A DNA stretch of 64,000 nt from a virus. Position numbers and translations under genes: made by a program. Position 1 is the first letter of the stretch; each line of letters begins with the position of its first letter. Below, one piece after another: positions 12,154 through 64,000 of this stretch. The stretch lies in IMG/VR virus record IMGVR_UViG_3300046028_006919, positions 12,475-76,474 of that record; one strand, 5' to 3'. The notes under the pieces are model-generated. The model worked only from the letters and a program-made list of their open reading frames with translations. It was not told where the DNA came from and did not search any database.

Positions 12154-12540
12154 TTATTCTTTATGAAATTCAACTAAATATCCTTTTGCAATCAGCACTC
12201 TTAAACACTTATCATCTTCATACAATTGAAGCATCACTGTTTTACCTTCTTCTGTTAAACATTCTATTAATTGATAATTCATACCATTTTCTGATACACC
12301 TGTAGTAACATCTCCTATTTGATAATAAGTGTATGTGTTACCATTTGGAAAATAGAATTTAACTTCTGATTTTCCTTCAGGGTTAAACACGACAGTGGTT
12401 TCTTTATACACCCATTCACCTACTACATCATCTTCTTTTGATATCATAGATGTGTATTTTTTTACAAAGGTTGAATTCTCTTGTGCAATACATGCAAAGC
12501 TGCTCAATAGTAGTAGAGCTCCTAATAGTAATTTTTTCAT
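12154..12540 (-). CDS. secreted/periplasmic protein
   Basis: MKKLLLGALLLLSSFACIAQ signal peptide. Confidence 0.7.
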   Translation of the reverse strand: MKKLLLGALLLLSSFACIAQENSTFVKKYTSMISKEDDVVGEWVYKETTVVFNPEGKSEVKFYFPNGNTYTYYQIGDVTTGVSENGMNYQLIECLTEEGKTVMLQLYEDDKCLRVLIAKGYLVEFHKE

Positions 12541-59892: not shown

Positions 59893-60609
59893 TTATTCAC
59901 CAATTGAAATCCAATCTAGTTTTTCTCTTTTTTGCGAAAGGTTACCAGCACCATGAGTTCCTCTTAGGATAGCGTTTGATTTGTGATATTCAAACCATTT
60001 ATTTTTTAATTCATCACTTTTAAACGTTGAAAAAATACCGTTAATCTCTACCAACTCAATATCTTTAAAATTAATATTGTTTTCTTTTAAAAAATTAAAA
60101 ACTAAAACATCGAATGTCAATGGTGGTGTGTGGTCTATATGACATGTTTTTTTAGAAAAATTTATTCCTAATATCGGACATGTTAAATATGTTTTTTTTA
60201 CAAATATTTTTTCTCTAAACTCATTTATTTGTGATTTAACAATAAATCTCATACTTTTTTTTACATCAATACTATTTTCACTACCAACTGTTTTACCACT
60301 ATTAATATAACCAATAGTTTTATGATAAGAAAAATCGATTACACTCCCATCAACTCTATTTATTTGAAAATGTGGGTATTTAGCTAATTTATTTGTTAAA
60401 TCATCTCTATGATATTCAATTGAAATTGATTCAATTCCAGCCCCTACTTTTTTATCATACTCTATATGATATTTCAATAATTCACTTACGTCTTTAAAAT
60501 CACTATCATTTAAAGGTTTACTAACCTCTCTATTATTTAAAATAGATGCAAAATACTCTGTTATGTTTTTTTTACTCTTAAAAAATTGACCATTAATAAG
60601 ATACCCCAT
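59893..60609 (-). CDS. DCL/DUF3223 domain protein with HNH-like C-terminus
   Basis: LLKYH...KKVGAGI...DGSVIDFSYHK; CPILG...HIDH..P..F...N. Confidence 0.7.
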   Translation of the reverse strand: MGYLINGQFFKSKKNITEYFASILNNREVSKPLNDSDFKDVSELLKYHIEYDKKVGAGIESISIEYHRDDLTNKLAKYPHFQINRVDGSVIDFSYHKTIGYINSGKTVGSENSIDVKKSMRFIVKSQINEFREKIFVKKTYLTCPILGINFSKKTCHIDHTPPLTFDVLVFNFLKENNINFKDIELVEINGIFSTFKSDELKNKWFEYHKSNAILRGTHGAGNLSQKREKLDWISIGE

Positions 60610-60628
60610 ATTTATTATTTTTTATTAG

Positions 60629-60701
60629 AGCGGATGACGGGATTCGAACCCGCGACCTCTGCCTTGGCAAGGCAGCGCTCAACCAGCCGAGCTCCATCCG
60701 C
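60629..60701 (-). tRNA. tRNA-Gly(GCC)
   Basis: GCGGATG/CATCCGC-T; CTGCC-TTGCCAA-GGCAG; GCGGG-TTCGAAT-CCCGT. Confidence 0.95.
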
Positions 60702-60780
60702 ATACATGCCTCTCTCTGCATCCGTCACCTTATCCTGTGTTATTTAATTTCGGACGTTTAAGGTCACACCGACGTACTTC

Positions 60781-61587
60781 TTACCAATACCACCATCTAG
60801 CTTCGTTTCTGGTTCTGTATTTAAACTCGTAAAAGTCTTGACTCCAAGCGCTAGCACAAGCCCAGTTGGTCCAATCGCTATCAGTGACAAAATCCCTTTC
60901 AGTCATCTCATTACCTTGTTCTTTATGCCACTCGTGAGAGTCGTTGATAAAATCAGTATTGAGGTTTTTGATAAGAGCCATTTTGTCTTTGCGTCTGTTA
61001 GCTTTAGTTATGCGTTTTAAAAAATTAGAATAACCGTTTTCATTCCATGGTTTAATCTTATCTTCTAAAACCCATTTTTGGTCTTTAACAAAAGCTCGTT
61101 GGCTTTCCAGCTCACCATCAACCACTTTACGGTGGGTGATATAGCTATTTTTAATCTTCATTACCAAATAATAATCAGGGACATAAGGAACATAATAAAC
61201 ATATTCGTTACCCCAATTGTATTCGGTTCTTTTGTGAAGATGCTCTTGAACCCATGGCAAGAAACCATCGTATTCTTTTTGAGTCAATCTTCTAAATTTT
61301 GGTCTATTATCACTAACTTTACCTCTTTTGTTTTTGGTGTAAAATTCTGGTAATCTTGACCAAGGTTCTGATGCAAAATTATCAATAAAGTATTGATATA
61401 ACCAAGCTACTCTATCTTCTCGTTTTGCAACATCTTCTCTTAGCGTTAAGTAAGCATTGAAACCGTGATGTACTGGTTTTTCAAGCTCAACATAACCTAA
61501 ATTTTTGATAGCGGCATCAAGCTCACTTTCTCTTTCTCTTAACGCTAATAAGCGTTTGTAATCTTTGTGTTTTGTGTTTTTACTCAT
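60781..61587 (-). CDS. basic hypothetical protein of Bacteroidota type
   Basis: 268 aa; LGYVELEKPVHHGF...LREDV motif. Confidence 0.7.
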   Translation of the reverse strand: MSKNTKHKDYKRLLALRERESELDAAIKNLGYVELEKPVHHGFNAYLTLREDVAKREDRVAWLYQYFIDNFASEPWSRLPEFYTKNKRGKVSDNRPKFRRLTQKEYDGFLPWVQEHLHKRTEYNWGNEYVYYVPYVPDYYLVMKIKNSYITHRKVVDGELESQRAFVKDQKWVLEDKIKPWNENGYSNFLKRITKANRRKDKMALIKNLNTDFINDSHEWHKEQGNEMTERDFVTDSDWTNWACASAWSQDFYEFKYRTRNEARWWYW

Positions 61588-61649
61588 CGTTCTCGGTATA
61601 GGGAATTGACCCTTAGAACCTCGAACCTTTTAAAATTGCAATCATAATA

Positions 61650-61913
61650 CTATAAATTTATTTTACCTATTATTGTAAAACCCTTAGGTTTCCATTTTTC
61701 TTTTTCTTTGTCAGTTATCGTGTTGCCATTTTTACCAACATGAAATTTGTAACAACTTTTGCATTTATACGCCACTACCTTGAATTTTCTATCTGGTAAT
61801 GCGTTTACACTCTTAGCATGTTTGATAGCTTGTTCAAGCATATCAAATGGTTTCTTTGGTTTGTCAACCAACTGTCCATTTATTCTACTTACGATTTGAG
61901 TTGTACAATCCAT
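61650..61913 (-). CDS. small zinc-finger protein
   Basis: AYKCKSCYKFHVG; own promoter. Confidence 0.65.
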   Translation of the reverse strand: MDCTTQIVSRINGQLVDKPKKPFDMLEQAIKHAKSVNALPDRKFKVVAYKCKSCYKFHVGKNGNTITDKEKEKWKPKGFTIIGKINL

Positions 61914-61954
61914 AATTTGTAATTTATTAGAGTACAAATATACGAACTATTATT

Positions 61955-62143
61955 TTACTTACCAAACTTTTCTTCAGTTATTTTTCCAGAAACTTTTGAA
62001 AATTGATTAATAGTAAGACGATGTACTTCAAACGCTTCAGTTATTGCTACATAAGCATCTTCTAAATCACTTGCGTAAGTAACTATATCCAACTCTGGAA
62101 TAGTAATCTTAATAAAACCGTCTATACATTTTTCAATTAACAT
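61955..62143 (-). CDS. small HicB-N-like protein
   Basis: IPELDIVTYASDLEDAYVAITEA resembles the HicB partial RNase H fold. Confidence 0.5.
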   Translation of the reverse strand: MLIEKCIDGFIKITIPELDIVTYASDLEDAYVAITEAFEVHRLTINQFSKVSGKITEEKFGK

Positions 62144-62159
62144 TGTTTCTAAATTTTAG

Positions 62160-62231
62160 AGCACATAGACGGAACTGACCCGACAACTGAGGGTTACAAA
62201 TCCCCTATTTTTCCTGTTAAACTATACGTGC
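62160..62231 (-). tRNA. tRNA-Thr(TGT), divergent
   Basis: GCACGTA/TATGTGC-T; GGGGA-TTTGTAA-CCCTC; atypical T loop GTCAGTT. Confidence 0.75.
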
Positions 62232-62239
62232 ATATTTCG

Positions 62240-62321
62240 TGGGGCACACAGGATTCGAACCTGCTCAGCTTACGCACCGCTTTTACAGAGCGGCCCAACT
62301 CTCCTACGTTGGCGGTACCCC
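62240..62321 (-). tRNA. tRNA-Tyr(GTA)
   Basis: GGGGTAC/GTGCCCC-A; CCGCT-CTGTAAA-AGCGG; long variable arm; GCAGG-TTCGAAT-CCTGT. Confidence 0.9.
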
Positions 62322-62326
62322 AAATA

Positions 62327-62387
62327 GAACAGAGAGATATTGTTTCAAATTAAAAGTTTGTTTTTGTTAATTGCTGAAATCTCTCTT
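62327..62387 (-). ncRNA. small CAGCAA-module RNA displaying a tRNA-Lys(UUU)-like anticodon stem-loop
   Basis: AGAGAGAT/ATCTCTCT closing stem enclosing TTCAGCAATTAACAAAAA-CAAA-CTTTTAA-TTTG; homologous to 59794-59843. Confidence 0.65.
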
Positions 62388-62394
62388 TATCTTG

Positions 62395-62465
62395 TTAGGG
62401 TATAAGGAATTGAACCTTATCAGCAACTGTCAAAGAGTTGTATGCAACCATTACATCTTACCCCA
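62395..62465 (-). tRNA. tRNA-Gln(TTG)
   Basis: TGGGGTA/TACCCTA-A; CAACT-CTTTGAC-AGTTG; TAAGG-TTCAATT-CCTTA. Confidence 0.9.
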
Positions 62466-62468
62466 AAA

Positions 62469-62659
62469 TTTCTAATTCTACGCTTCCCACTTTTCAGGTG
62501 CTATGTATTAGTAACAGTCTGTCTTCGAGCGACTTACGGGATTCGAACCCGTCCTATTCCTGATTGGAAGTCAGGTGCCATGCCAGCTAGGCGAAAGTCG
62601 CAATTTTCTAATTCTACGCTTCGAGTTCTTCACGGTCTTCTATGAATTAGTAACAGTCT
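62469..62659 (-). repeat. two copies (62469-62520, 62605-62659) of AGACTGTTACTAAT-n-CATAG-variable-GAAGCGTAGAATTAGAAA
   Basis: direct repeat with constant ends and a variable core, each copy just 3' of a tRNA. Confidence 0.85.
62528..62601 (-). tRNA. tRNA-Gly(TCC)
   Basis: GCGACTT/AAGTCGC-T; CCTGA-CTTCCAA-TCAGG; ACGGG-TTCGAAT-CCCGT. Confidence 0.9.
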
Positions 62660-62667
62660 CTTCTCAG

Positions 62668-62754
62668 TCTAAAGGGTGGGATTCGAACCCACGGTGTTAT
62701 CTCTAACTCTTGCGTCCAAGGCAAGCGAGTCTAGCCATCTGCTCTAACCTCTAG
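62668..62754 (-). tRNA. tRNA-Pro(TGG) with a long variable arm
   Basis: CTAGAGG/CCTTTAG-A; CTTGC-CTTGGAC-GCAAG; variable GTTA-GAGA-TAAC; GTGGG-TTCGAAT-CCCAC. Confidence 0.85.
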
Positions 62755-62770
62755 TTTATATATTATTTTG

Positions 62771-62842
62771 TGACCCCAGAGAATTTTGAAATCTCGACTC
62801 CTCCGTTAAAAGCGGAGTGCTCTGCCTCTGAGCTATGAGGTC
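62771..62842 (-). tRNA. tRNA-Lys(TTT)
   Basis: GACCTCA/TGGGGTC-A; GCTC/GAGC D stem; CTCCG-CTTTTAA-CGGAG. Confidence 0.9.
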
Positions 62843-62862
62843 GTTTGTTAATTTTGTCGCAT

Positions 62863-62898
62863 AAAAAAACCCAGTTTAGATTTTACTCTGAACTGGGT
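62863..62898 (-). terminator. attenuator terminator (3:4 hairpin) ahead of the tRNA cluster
   Basis: ACCCAGTTCAGA-GTAAAA-TCTAAACTGGGT followed by U6, ending 20 nt before tRNA-Lys. Confidence 0.85.
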
Positions 62899-62923
62899 CT
62901 ATAATCTGTACTTACGTACTTGC

Positions 62924-63025
62924 TTATATTGTCGTCAAATCTAACAACTTGACATACCCAGTCACCTTGAACGGTTTCCCGCCTTTAGGTTGATATTGCG
63001 TTTGATATGTGGTTGTTTTTTTCAT
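62924..63025 (-). CDS. putative attenuator leader peptide MKKTTTYQTQYQPKGGKPFKVTGYVKLLDLTTI
   Basis: 33-codon ORF between promoter and terminator; codons 2-18 encode only K/T/Y/Q/P/G. Confidence 0.8.
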   Translation of the reverse strand: MKKTTTYQTQYQPKGGKPFKVTGYVKLLDLTTI

Positions 63026-63087
63026 TGTTGTTTATAAATATGTTGTTTTTTGTAAAAATTCTTTTTTATCTATTTTTAATTACATTG

Positions 63088-63119
63088 CAAAGATACTAAC
63101 TATTGTAATACAAGTCAAG
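63088..63119 (-). promoter_or_regulatory. promoter of the leader/tRNA operon
   Basis: CTTG (63116-63119), 20 nt, TATCTTTG (63088-63095). Confidence 0.8.
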
Positions 63120-63152
63120 TTTTTTTATTACTTTTTTTAAATTATTTTTTAA

Positions 63153-63632
63153 TTATCTGAATTTCAGTTTAATGTCTATTAATATTTTGTTAGGTGCGTT
63201 TTCTGTTCCGCCAAAATATGGGTTTAATTTATATCTAATTAAATCCCAAGTTGAGCTTCTTTTAGCGGCAACTACTGATTTATTTATTGTGATTTTATAA
63301 TAACCATCTAAAATATCAATCGAAAAATAATGTTGTTTGTTCGGTTCTACGTGTGTAATAGCAAAGATACTTCTTTTAGAGTTGTTATATATTATACCAA
63401 CAATTTCAACCATATCTGGGTATTTTGGGTTGTATCTCCAACCTATTCTAACACTATCTAAATGATGATGCCAGTTATCTGATAAACCAATTAATTTATT
63501 TGAATCTTTTTGTTTTTGAATTGAATACTTGTACCCATCAATAAAGGTAAAAACCCCAGTTATGGAGTCTTTGATAGTAAACGTTGGTGTCAACGTACTT
63601 CTATGTTTACCTTTATTGATTATATACGTCAT
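63153..63632 (-). CDS. hypothetical beta-rich protein
   Basis: NKLIG, SVRIGWR and LNPYFGG..AP motifs. Confidence 0.65.
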   Translation of the reverse strand: MTYIINKGKHRSTLTPTFTIKDSITGVFTFIDGYKYSIQKQKDSNKLIGLSDNWHHHLDSVRIGWRYNPKYPDMVEIVGIIYNNSKRSIFAITHVEPNKQHYFSIDILDGYYKITINKSVVAAKRSSTWDLIRYKLNPYFGGTENAPNKILIDIKLKFR

Positions 63633-63799
63633 TTTCTTCTAAATGAATTAATAGCTGAAATTGTTAATATTATAAAACTATACGCTATGTAAAGTCCACA
63701 TGGGATTAAAACATATTTTGACCATATTTCATTTTGAAATAATGATGTAATGAAACCAATTACGAATGCAGCTAACAATAAATATAAACTAACTTTCAT
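63629..63799 (-). CDS. small membrane protein
   Basis: two TM segments. Confidence 0.55.
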   Translation of the reverse strand: MKVSLYLLLAAFVIGFITSLFQNEIWSKYVLIPCGLYIAYSFIILTISAINSFRRK

Positions 63800-63800
63800 T

Positions 63801-64000
63801 TTATTTTTTAATTTTATTCGCATTTCTCTTAGCGATTCTATCTCTAAGTTTAGCTGCTAACTCGTAATTTTCTTCTTTTACAGCGCTAAGTAACTGAACC
63901 TCTAAAGGTATTCTAGTTTTCTTAGCTTCGATTTTTTGTTTAACAAAAGGAACATCTGAAATGATAGTCTTTATAACTTGACCATGTTTAGTGTTCCAAT
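63801..64000 (-). CDS. UvrB/UvrC (UVR) motif protein, 5' end outside the window
   Basis: LSAVKEENYELAAKLRDRI. Confidence 0.7.
   Translation of the reverse strand, partial: WNTKHGQVIKTIISDVPFVKQKIEAKKTRIPLEVQLLSAVKEENYELAAKLRDRIAKRNANKIKK

Follow-up and report, generated by a model that had tools for sequence, protein, structure and literature searches.

The window analysed here comprises 64,000 nucleotides of viral DNA (positions 12,475 to 76,474 of the IMG/VR record IMGVR_UViG_3300046028_006919). Close to one of its ends, a small open reading frame (ORF) of 33 codons is located between a promoter and an intrinsic terminator, and the terminator is followed by six transfer RNA (tRNA) genes. 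We suggest, with a probability of about 0.8, that this arrangement represents a ribosome-mediated (leader-peptide) transcription attenuator that gates the phage tRNA array, in which case the phage would probably make these tRNAs only when ribosomes read the sensor codons in the leader slowly. An attenuator had been proposed in an initial annotation of the sequence, and this interpretation is supported by our comparative tests of the codon content and of the covariation in two alternative RNA pairings, the antiterminator (2:3) and the terminator (3:4). Among the five features of attenuators that can be tested from sequence, four were identified, namely the ORF, the enrichment of regulatory codons, the terminator and an alternative antiterminator pairing.

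Organization of the leader and the tRNA array

The elements described in the initial annotation (promoter, 33-codon ORF, terminator, six tRNAs and a more distal tRNA-Gly(GCC)) are all present on the minus strand, on which all locus coordinates are given (Table 1). The promoter is of the Bacteroidota type, with TTG located 18 and 23 nt upstream of the -7 box TATCTTTG, and a promoter of the identical type heads all three leader types found in relatives. Transcription would start near 63081, and the 5' untranslated region (5'UTR) between the promoter and the leader ORF is A-rich. The terminator hairpin at 62898-62863 was missed by a simple terminator scanner because of a C/A mismatch in its stem. 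A separate promoter for the tRNAs downstream of the terminator had been named as an observation that would speak against attenuation, but the gap of only 20 nt between the T-tract and tRNA-Lys leaves no room for one, and no TAnnTTTG box is present from the terminator to the last gene of the array. Transcription of the tRNAs must therefore come from read-through of the terminator. A scan against Rfam (E < 1, 60000-64000) recovered tRNAs only, and neither a T-box nor a leader family was identified.

Codons 2-18 of the leader use only Lys (K), Thr (T), Tyr (Y), Gln (Q), Pro (P) and Gly (G), exactly as listed in the initial annotation. In total, these six amino acids account for 30.7% of the residues in the ORFs of the phage, and at this background a run of at least 17 such residues in 32 codons has a probability of 2.2e-8. 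Before segment 2, which is a near copy of the 3' arm of the terminator, 18 of the 19 residues belong to the set (binomial P = 8e-9), as compared to 6 of 13 in the tail after it, where the amino acids of the set are at the background level. One defining feature of an attenuator, enrichment in codons for the amino acids of the regulated array, is thus found in the leader ORF.

Conservation of the leader in related phages

Relatives of the leader were found via three routes: the upstream protein, the exact terminator sequence and degenerate patterns at the protein level. About 40 related loci on viral and metagenome contigs retain the module, and these contain 21 distinct leader sequences. The same-strand arrays downstream contain only Pro, Lys, Gly, Gln, Tyr and Thr tRNAs at every locus with downstream sequence, the exception being L018/L045, in which ARAGORN adds three odd calls within the array (Ser(aga), Pyl(cta) and one unassigned). 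The arrays vary in gene order and in copy number, from 5 to 20 genes, and contain insertions of HNH-type ORFs.

The ATG codon, located 15 nt upstream of the ACATATC motif, is kept despite an indel of 13 nt in the 5'UTR, and the reading frame of the leader is open in all relatives. The N-terminal block varies inside the amino acid set (KKTTT, KTQTT, KTTKT, TTTTT; QT vs TK), and the tails are unrelated as proteins (e.g., ..VKLLDLTTI, ..MRCDDITEF, ..VVNATEI). The nucleotide motif of segment 2, ACTGGGTATG, is kept in different frames, as ACT GGG TAT G in the window versus CTG GGT ATG in leaders of the L017 type. Thus, the 5' half of the leader appears to act as codons and the 3' half, with its frame-independent motif, as RNA, which is the pattern expected of a leader-peptide attenuator.

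A metatranscriptome contig of 260 nt from a close relative, recovered in two runs of one freshwater study, covers the 5'UTR, the ORF and the terminator; beyond the aligned part, its sequence agrees with the beginning of the first tRNA in an L009-like relative. This is a weak hint of read-through; such contigs lack RNA ends, carry-over of DNA is possible, and the four RNA runs cover fragments only.

Paralogous leaders precede arrays with disjoint amino acid sets

We examined three large relatives: a 92-kb fragment with 51 tRNA matches, a complete genome of 360 kb with 53 and a 96-kb fragment with 27. Most of the tRNAs in the 92-kb and the 360-kb relatives are located in three groups with disjoint amino acid sets, which jointly cover all 20 amino acids: array 1 (P, K, G, Q, Y, T), array 2 (C, V, L, F, E, D, A) and array 3 (S, H, W, I, M, N, R). 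The 96-kb fragment contains the first two groups only. In the 360-kb phage, two arrays make up group 2, and a few tRNAs occur singly, away from the others. The same promoter recurs in front of each of the three arrays, accompanied in each case by a small ORF and a terminator.

The paralogous leaders were located by their position and not by a sequence pattern. An example of leader 2 is MKTFNNAVVLLVLCLLVVD.., while leader 3 is either MRTINIHMISRNWRRNSH.., in which 16 of 18 residues, including Trp, belong to its set, or MMMQTISIHINSIMNWRRNSS... A table of leaders 1 to 3 against arrays 1 to 3, with one representative per type (18, 1, 0; 2, 14, 2; and 2, 0, 16), yielded a chi-square P of 5e-15. 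The claim that the codons of the leader co-vary with the content of the array is thereby borne out by three paralogous leader types that precede three disjoint arrays. Likewise, the part of array 2 that is located behind a leader in the 360-kb phage contains Cys, Val and Leu tRNAs only, and the sensor stretch before segment 2 in this leader is free of Phe, Asp, Glu and Ala; the part with the Asp, Glu, Phe and Ala tRNAs is located behind a plain promoter.

Each paralogous leader also holds a copy of the 3' arm of its own terminator, though the terminators differ. The five 5' arms of the terminators are ACCCAGTT, ACCCATC, CTCGATGT, ACCCGAC and ACTTGAC, and segment 2 follows each of them: it is GATGGGT for ACCCATC, ACATCGAG for CTCGATGT (a perfect 8-bp complement), GTCGGGT for ACCCGAC (7/7) and GTCAAGG for ACTTGAC (7/7).

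Two further elements were seen at these loci. A conserved ORF of about 57 amino acids (MGELVKCLGREK.. / MEKLVRKLGSEK..) is located between the terminator of leader 3 and the first tRNA of array 3 in the large relatives G004 (L002, L069-L071) and G002 (L075-L081). The motif (C/G)ATATTTAT or TATATATTAA is present downstream of the -7 box in the 5'UTRs of leaders 1, 2 and 3 (63026-63087 in the window), and its distance from the -7 box is about 45 nt greater in the window than in leader 2.

Leaders and arrays co-vary in a sample selected independently of the leader

We also collected arrays by using a repeated inter-tRNA spacer of the array in the window as the anchor, such that the leader sequence was not used. 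This anchor recovered at least 119 viral stretches, which represent 69 loci with arrays of very different content. A crude detector was applied to the 59 arrays with enough flanking sequence, and for 38 of these it placed a small ORF, together with a T-run hairpin, immediately before the array. For 20 of the 59 arrays it found no such hairpin, and for one more a hairpin without an ORF; the starts of the arrays were not checked, and these numbers do not estimate the share of arrays without leaders.

The leaders in this sample include one with all 20 amino acids before an array for all 20, ..AASWAPSYEPSSAYES.. before an array of Tyr, Pro, Ser, Trp, Glu, Glu and Ala, QPDQDPD-type leaders before Asp/Pro/Gln arrays, and a variant of leader 1 with a Glu codon, the array of which has gained a tRNA-Glu. 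For 29 distinct pairs of leaders and arrays, which are not phylogenetically independent, the match score was 3.45, as compared to 0.05 +/- 0.57 for shuffled pairs, and none of the 20,000 shuffles reached the observed value. For arrays of 3-9 isotypes alone, the observed score was reached by 1 of 20,000 shuffles. Co-variation between leader and array, as anticipated in the initial annotation, is therefore also recovered with an anchor that is independent of the leader.

Alternative RNA pairings and predicted folds

The 2:3 and 3:4 pairings exist exactly as quoted in the initial annotation, and the compensatory changes foreseen for both stems were observed among the relatives. In an alignment of the 21 distinct leaders (A1), with 500 shuffles for comparison, 99.1% of the cells in the terminator stem 3:4 are paired, with four pairs changed on both sides, and no shuffle reached this. 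The antiterminator 2:3 has 97.6% of the cells paired and two pairs changed on both sides (reached by 11/500 shuffles), while hairpin M, located in the tail of the ORF, has 84.6% of the cells paired and five pairs changed on both sides (0/500). In slid controls for 3:4 and 2:3, at most 54% of the cells were paired. For each of the 21 leaders, a hairpin of differing sequence (GTAG/CTAC, GATA/TATC, ATAC/GTAT, TCTAC/GTAGA) is predicted around the stop codon, and the distance from the stop codon to segment 3, 25 nt in the window, is 25-30 nt in all leaders. Also, some hairpin is predicted at the position of the GNRA-loop hairpin in 21/21 leaders, with a shifted register in the L010 type, and it may serve as a pause or synchronising hairpin.

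The minimum free energy (MFE) fold of the window RNA truncated before segment 4 is the antiterminator (-32.9), predicted as a three-way junction composed of 2:3, hairpin M and the stop-codon hairpin. The MFE fold of the full-length leader is instead the terminator (-44.1 vs -39.3 for the antiterminator). This predicted ordering of the folds is the same as in classical attenuators.

Proposed mechanism

According to our model, transcription would start from the Bacteroidota-type promoter and a ribosome would translate the 33-codon leader. Slowing of the ribosome at any of codons ~2-17 (Lys, Thr, Tyr, Gln, Pro, Gly) would leave segment 2 naked, and this segment would pair with segment 3 once the latter has been made, forming with the two small hairpins the three-way-junction antiterminator, so that the RNA polymerase could continue into the six tRNA genes. 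During fast decoding, the ribosome would pass segment 2 and both hairpins on its way to the stop codon and thereby block the junction, and the 3:4 hairpin and its U-tract would then end the transcript 20 nt before tRNA-Lys. Stalling would accordingly be the signal that favours read-through, and what opposes the antiterminator when no ribosome stalls may be either ribosome occupancy or the 1:2 helix. Because the products of the array should speed up the decoding of the leader, the circuit is expected to behave both as a multi-input OR gate and as a product-feedback homeostat of the tRNA supply.

More tentatively, the leaders could be alarms for tRNA depletion in an arms race between phage and host, in which the loss of a tRNA stalls the ribosome at the matching codon and releases an array with the replacement. 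Such depletion might be the work of host anticodon nucleases, or of the phage itself if it shuts off the tRNA pool of the host. The trigger by anticodon nucleases and a role of some array members as decoys were both put forward in the initial annotation, and both are speculative.

Alternative explanations and observations against attenuation

Several observations weigh against the attenuator or narrow what can be drawn from the comparisons. The main search pattern fixed the peptide YQPKGGKP, and both the invariance of this block and the third-position variation are consequently built in to some extent; leaders found independently of this pattern carry QPKGGT, TKGGQP or TQGKPS in its place. The aligned leaders are related sequences, and the cell counts therefore overstate the number of independent events. 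The match between codons and tRNAs has gaps: codon 5 (ACC) is poorly matched by Thr(UGU), L001 is without Thr and Gly(UCC) tRNAs and keeps those codons, and one isotype in each of the arrays of L154 (Ala) and L124 (Glu) is missing from the leader. Some arrays in relatives (L077, L080) have a plain promoter and no leader. Further promoter-like boxes separate tRNA-Gly(GCC) from the array behind the leader, and since this gene is located 1.5 kb past the array, its control by the leader is uncertain. Amino acid starvation or uncharged tRNA would also trip the switch, and extra tRNA would then be useless to the phage.

The 1:2 pairing described in the initial annotation does exist, but it is weak in this phage. 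Forcing it in the window costs 7 kcal/mol relative to the antiterminator fold, and the pairing (ACATATC/GGTATGT) overlaps 2:3 by only 3 nt. In the alignment, 90.5% of its cells are paired with no pair changed on both sides, 65/500 shuffles reach the same value for cells paired, and the end pairs fail in 6-8 of the 21 sequences. A version of 8-11 bp is part of the MFE fold in 14 of the 21 relatives. Furthermore, folding with the nucleotides covered by a stalled ribosome masked, which had been suggested as a check, made little difference, since the antiterminator is obtained at equilibrium whether segment 1 is masked or not (P(2:3) of 0.91 vs 0.93 in the window). Equilibrium masking was therefore rejected as a test that discriminates the two states in the window, and the switch must be kinetic or steric.

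These folding results bear on the explanation that we consider to be the strongest of three improbable ones, according to which the leader is a translation-driven attenuator that reports general translation or coupling (e.g., host shut-off or ribosome availability) rather than the tRNAs of the array, with the choice of codons being due to other causes. Folding predicts read-through whenever segment 2 is uncovered, including when there is no translation at all, and the helix that provides the specificity in the classical scheme is the weak one here, yet an attenuator of this kind explains neither the match of each of the three paralogous leaders to the amino acids of its own array nor the tracking of arrays by leaders over 29 pairs.

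Slightly less probable is a structured non-coding leader RNA with an incidental ORF, in which the antiterminator is stabilised by a factor from the phage or the host, or by direct binding of a tRNA as in a T-box. The covariation of several hairpins, the non-synonymous changes Y24C and G15S that preserve RNA pairs, and the retention of the segment 2 motif whatever the frame all speak in favour of this reading. Such an RNA would not account for an ATG and an open frame in every copy despite the indels in the 5'UTR, for synonymous changes in sensor codons outside the search pattern (CAA/CAG, ACA/ACG/ACT), or for the ORFs with matching amino acid content in the leaders that were found by position; without translation, 17 to 20 consecutive matching codons in one frame would serve no purpose, and no Rfam match, including T-box, was obtained at E < 1.

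The least probable of the three is a regular gene for a small protein, equipped with a promoter and a terminator of its own, with an array transcribed by leak-through and an accidental amino acid match: small phage proteins are common and the block TYQ.QYQPKGGKP is conserved as protein, but part of this invariance comes from the search route and the variants QPKGGT, TKGGQP and TQGKPS exist, the C-terminal halves are not conserved and shift frame relative to conserved nucleotides, chance cannot produce such a match again and again, in three paralogous types and 29 pairs, and the copy of the 3' arm of the terminator within each ORF is left unexplained.

Comparison with known regulatory systems

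Attenuation by leader peptides has been a textbook mechanism for the control of amino acid biosynthesis for about 50 years, while bacterial tRNA genes are known to be controlled at their promoters. Multivalent leader attenuators occur in enterobacteria, with the thr leader responding to Thr and Ile and the ilvGMEDA leader to Ile, Leu and Val, and trpL and hisL are further examples of such leaders. The phage leader resembles the enterobacterial leaders in that a short ORF rich in regulatory codons, translated in the enterobacterial systems and presumably so here, is located between a promoter and an intrinsic terminator, in that the 5' arm of the terminator is contested by a segment further upstream, with the terminator being thermodynamically stronger than the antiterminator, and in that one leader senses several amino acids. 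It differs in that tRNAs rather than biosynthetic enzymes are regulated, so that the products would act directly on the sensor, in the number of inputs, which is six in this phage and up to all 20 in its relatives, and in being borne by a phage, the host of which probably has Bacteroidota-type promoters. The geometry differs as well: the stop codon is located after segment 2, inside the antiterminator loop, and not between segments 1 and 2, and the 1:2 helix is weak or dispensable.

In E. coli, the pheM leader controls pheST, which encodes phenylalanyl-tRNA synthetase. It is similar to the phage leader in that a gene for the translation apparatus, and not for biosynthesis, is the target of leader-peptide attenuation, and it differs in being cellular, in having a single amino acid as input and in having an aminoacyl-tRNA synthetase protein as target. 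T-box riboswitches likewise choose between a terminator and an antiterminator according to the state of one specific tRNA, but in their case a specifier codon and the T-box sequence bind the uncharged tRNA directly, no ribosome takes part and the controlled genes are synthetase or amino acid genes, whereas the phage leader has an in-frame ORF; the candidate identity as a T-box was rejected, as no Rfam T-box match was obtained (E < 1, 60000-64000). The E. coli tRNA-Phe genes pheU and pheV were considered as an attenuator-like precedent and were also rejected: in K-12, a plain promoter precedes pheV by about 30 nt, and pheU is located 106 nt from dicD.

Phage tRNAs replace host tRNAs that are cut by anticodon nucleases, for example the T5 tRNAs that act against PARIS or retron systems. 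The array described here resembles T5-type tRNAs as a phage-encoded back-up supply for decoding, and to our knowledge no translation-sensing control has been described for such back-up phage tRNA genes.

The nearest system is the trn operon of Anabaena sp. PCC 7120, a long tRNA array that is induced under translational stress (PMC8421152, PMC10272220). Its induction involves promoter repeats and a repressor, and the paper on this induction makes no mention of attenuation, a leader or a terminator. Both arrays are accessory, and the phage array, like that of Anabaena, would be silent by default and on when translation is impaired; the Anabaena array is cellular and located on a megaplasmid. Full-text literature searches yielded no account of leader-peptide attenuation of tRNA genes, either phage or cellular, in agreement with the initial annotation, the author of which knew of no attenuator controlling a phage tRNA array. 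The novelty lies in the target of the attenuator, namely tRNA genes with products that would act back on the sensor; it also departs from the classical cases in how many inputs it has and in its geometry.

Genomic context and host

The window represents the last 64 kb of a virus contig of 76,474 bp, in which the leader locus is located about 1 kb from the contig end, such that the contig stops 1 kb upstream of the leader promoter. All large ORFs are on the minus strand, including those for a nuclease, a nicotinamide phosphoribosyltransferase and an ATPase. The TAnnTTTG motif, which is the -7 box of Bacteroidota promoters, occurs 91 times on the minus strand as compared to about 38 expected, and 46 of these have TTG 15-26 nt upstream. 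This excess points to Bacteroidota-type host promoters throughout the phage fragment and, together with the spacing of TTG, suggests that the host is most likely a member of the Bacteroidota. The DNA of the window recurs in metagenomes from lake water.

Searches with blastn and megablast against 50,697 phage records produced matches at the level of tRNAs only, and a tblastn search with the upstream protein gave one distant uncultured match; no cultured model phage was identified. A scan for the peptide motif in genome contigs gave 18 matches, all by chance and in unrelated frames, and thus no prophage or host copy and no host assignment. Family searches of the neighbouring ORFs were uninformative, apart from DUF3223 in one ORF. 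The 62-aa ORF downstream of tRNA-Thr probably shares the transcript of the array, with the next promoter-like box located at 61942.

Table 1. Features of the leader and the tRNA array in the window, with positions on the minus strand.
Feature	Position	Strand	Description
Promoter, Bacteroidota type	63088-63119	-	perfect -7 box at 63095-63088; TTG (-33)
Leader ORF	63025-62924	-	33 codons + stop; translation MKKTTTYQTQYQPKGGKPFKVTGYVKLLDLTTI
Sensor codons 2-18	62972-63022	-	KKTTTYQTQYQPKGGKP
Segment 1 of proposed 1:2 pairing	63004-63010	-	ACATATC
GNRA-loop hairpin	62964-62990	-	CCT..GGCGG-GAAA-CCGTT..AGG; inside codons 12-21; -8.7 kcal/mol
Segment 2	62956-62963	-	GACTGGGT; pairs with segment 3 in the antiterminator
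Hairpin M	62934-62953	-	GTCAAGT/ATTTGAC; one arm of the three-way junction
Stop-codon hairpin	62900-62928	-	ATATA..GTAC-GTAA-GTAC..TTATA; second arm of the junction
Intrinsic terminator	62898-62863	-	ACCCAGTT-C-AGA / TCT-A-AACTGGGT + T7; -15.3 kcal/mol
Segment 3	62898-62891	-	
Segment 4	62876-62869	-	
T7 tract	62869-62863	-	
tRNA array (whole)	62159-62842	-	
tRNA-Lys(UUU)	62770-62842	-	
tRNA-Pro(UGG)	62667-62754	-	long
tRNA-Gly(UCC)	62527-62601	-	
tRNA-Gln(UUG)	62394-62465	-	
tRNA-Tyr(GUA)	62239-62321	-	
tRNA-Thr(UGU)	62159-62231	-	
62-aa ORF	61955-62143	-	begins 16 nt after tRNA-Thr; no family match
tRNA-Gly(GCC)	60628-60701	-	reader of the leader GGC codon; 1.5 kb beyond the array

Additional observations on the tRNAs and spacers

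The tRNA-Pro(UGG) in the window has a length of 88 nt, a long variable arm (GTTA-GAGA-TAAC), discriminator A and a low Rfam score (32.6 bits), and is thus a type-II body with a Pro anticodon. Long versions of the UGG tRNA (88-96 nt) are located first or second in most related arrays. In L001 (4213-5070), the long UGG tRNA seems to be split in the loop of the variable arm by an insert of about 0.8 kb that carries an HNH-type ORF and another tRNA-Pro; two tRNAs at this locus score only 29-31 bits. A tRNA-Gly with anticodon ACC (A34) replaces GCC in the arrays of L013, L014, L017, L018, L025 and L070, and ARAGORN made suppressor-like tRNA calls with anticodon CTA in L018 and TCA in L070.

The spacers at 62466-62526 and 62602-62666 on the minus strand share two blocks (GACTGTTACTAATWCATAG ... 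GAAGCGTAGAATTAGAAA), with a possible CTAATTC/GAATTAG stem. The first block is present in at least 119 viral contig stretches, always within tRNA arrays, and the conserved blocks may represent a processing signal. The Tyr-Gln spacer (62327-62387, minus strand) contains an 8-bp stem (AGAGAGAT/ATCTCTCT) around a small CAAA/TTTG hairpin, the loop of which, CTTTTAA, is identical in sequence to the anticodon loop of tRNA-Lys(UUU). An extra hairpin with compensatory changes (TCATCTT/AAGATGA, TTCATC/GATGAA, CCTAT/ATAGG) is located between the terminator and the first tRNA in L013, L015, L017 and L018, and downstream of it, at a distance of about 20 nt from the first tRNA, lies TTTGAMATATTG, which does not fit a -33/-7 promoter.

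Implications for tRNA-rich phages

The logic of attenuation appears to gate the tRNA genes themselves, with six inputs per leader here and up to 20 in relatives, and the module is widespread, as more than 100 viral contigs contain arrays of this kind. If the attenuator operates as proposed, it would explain how tRNA-rich phages dose their tRNAs, and it would represent a natural and compact reporter of the codon-specific speed of decoding, from which programmable multi-codon sensors for synthetic biology could be derived. It would also provide a testable link to defence systems that target tRNAs. Should the leaders in addition be alarms for tRNA depletion, which is the more tentative suggestion, the separately gated arrays would constitute a modular and evolvable circuit for counter-defence and homeostasis.

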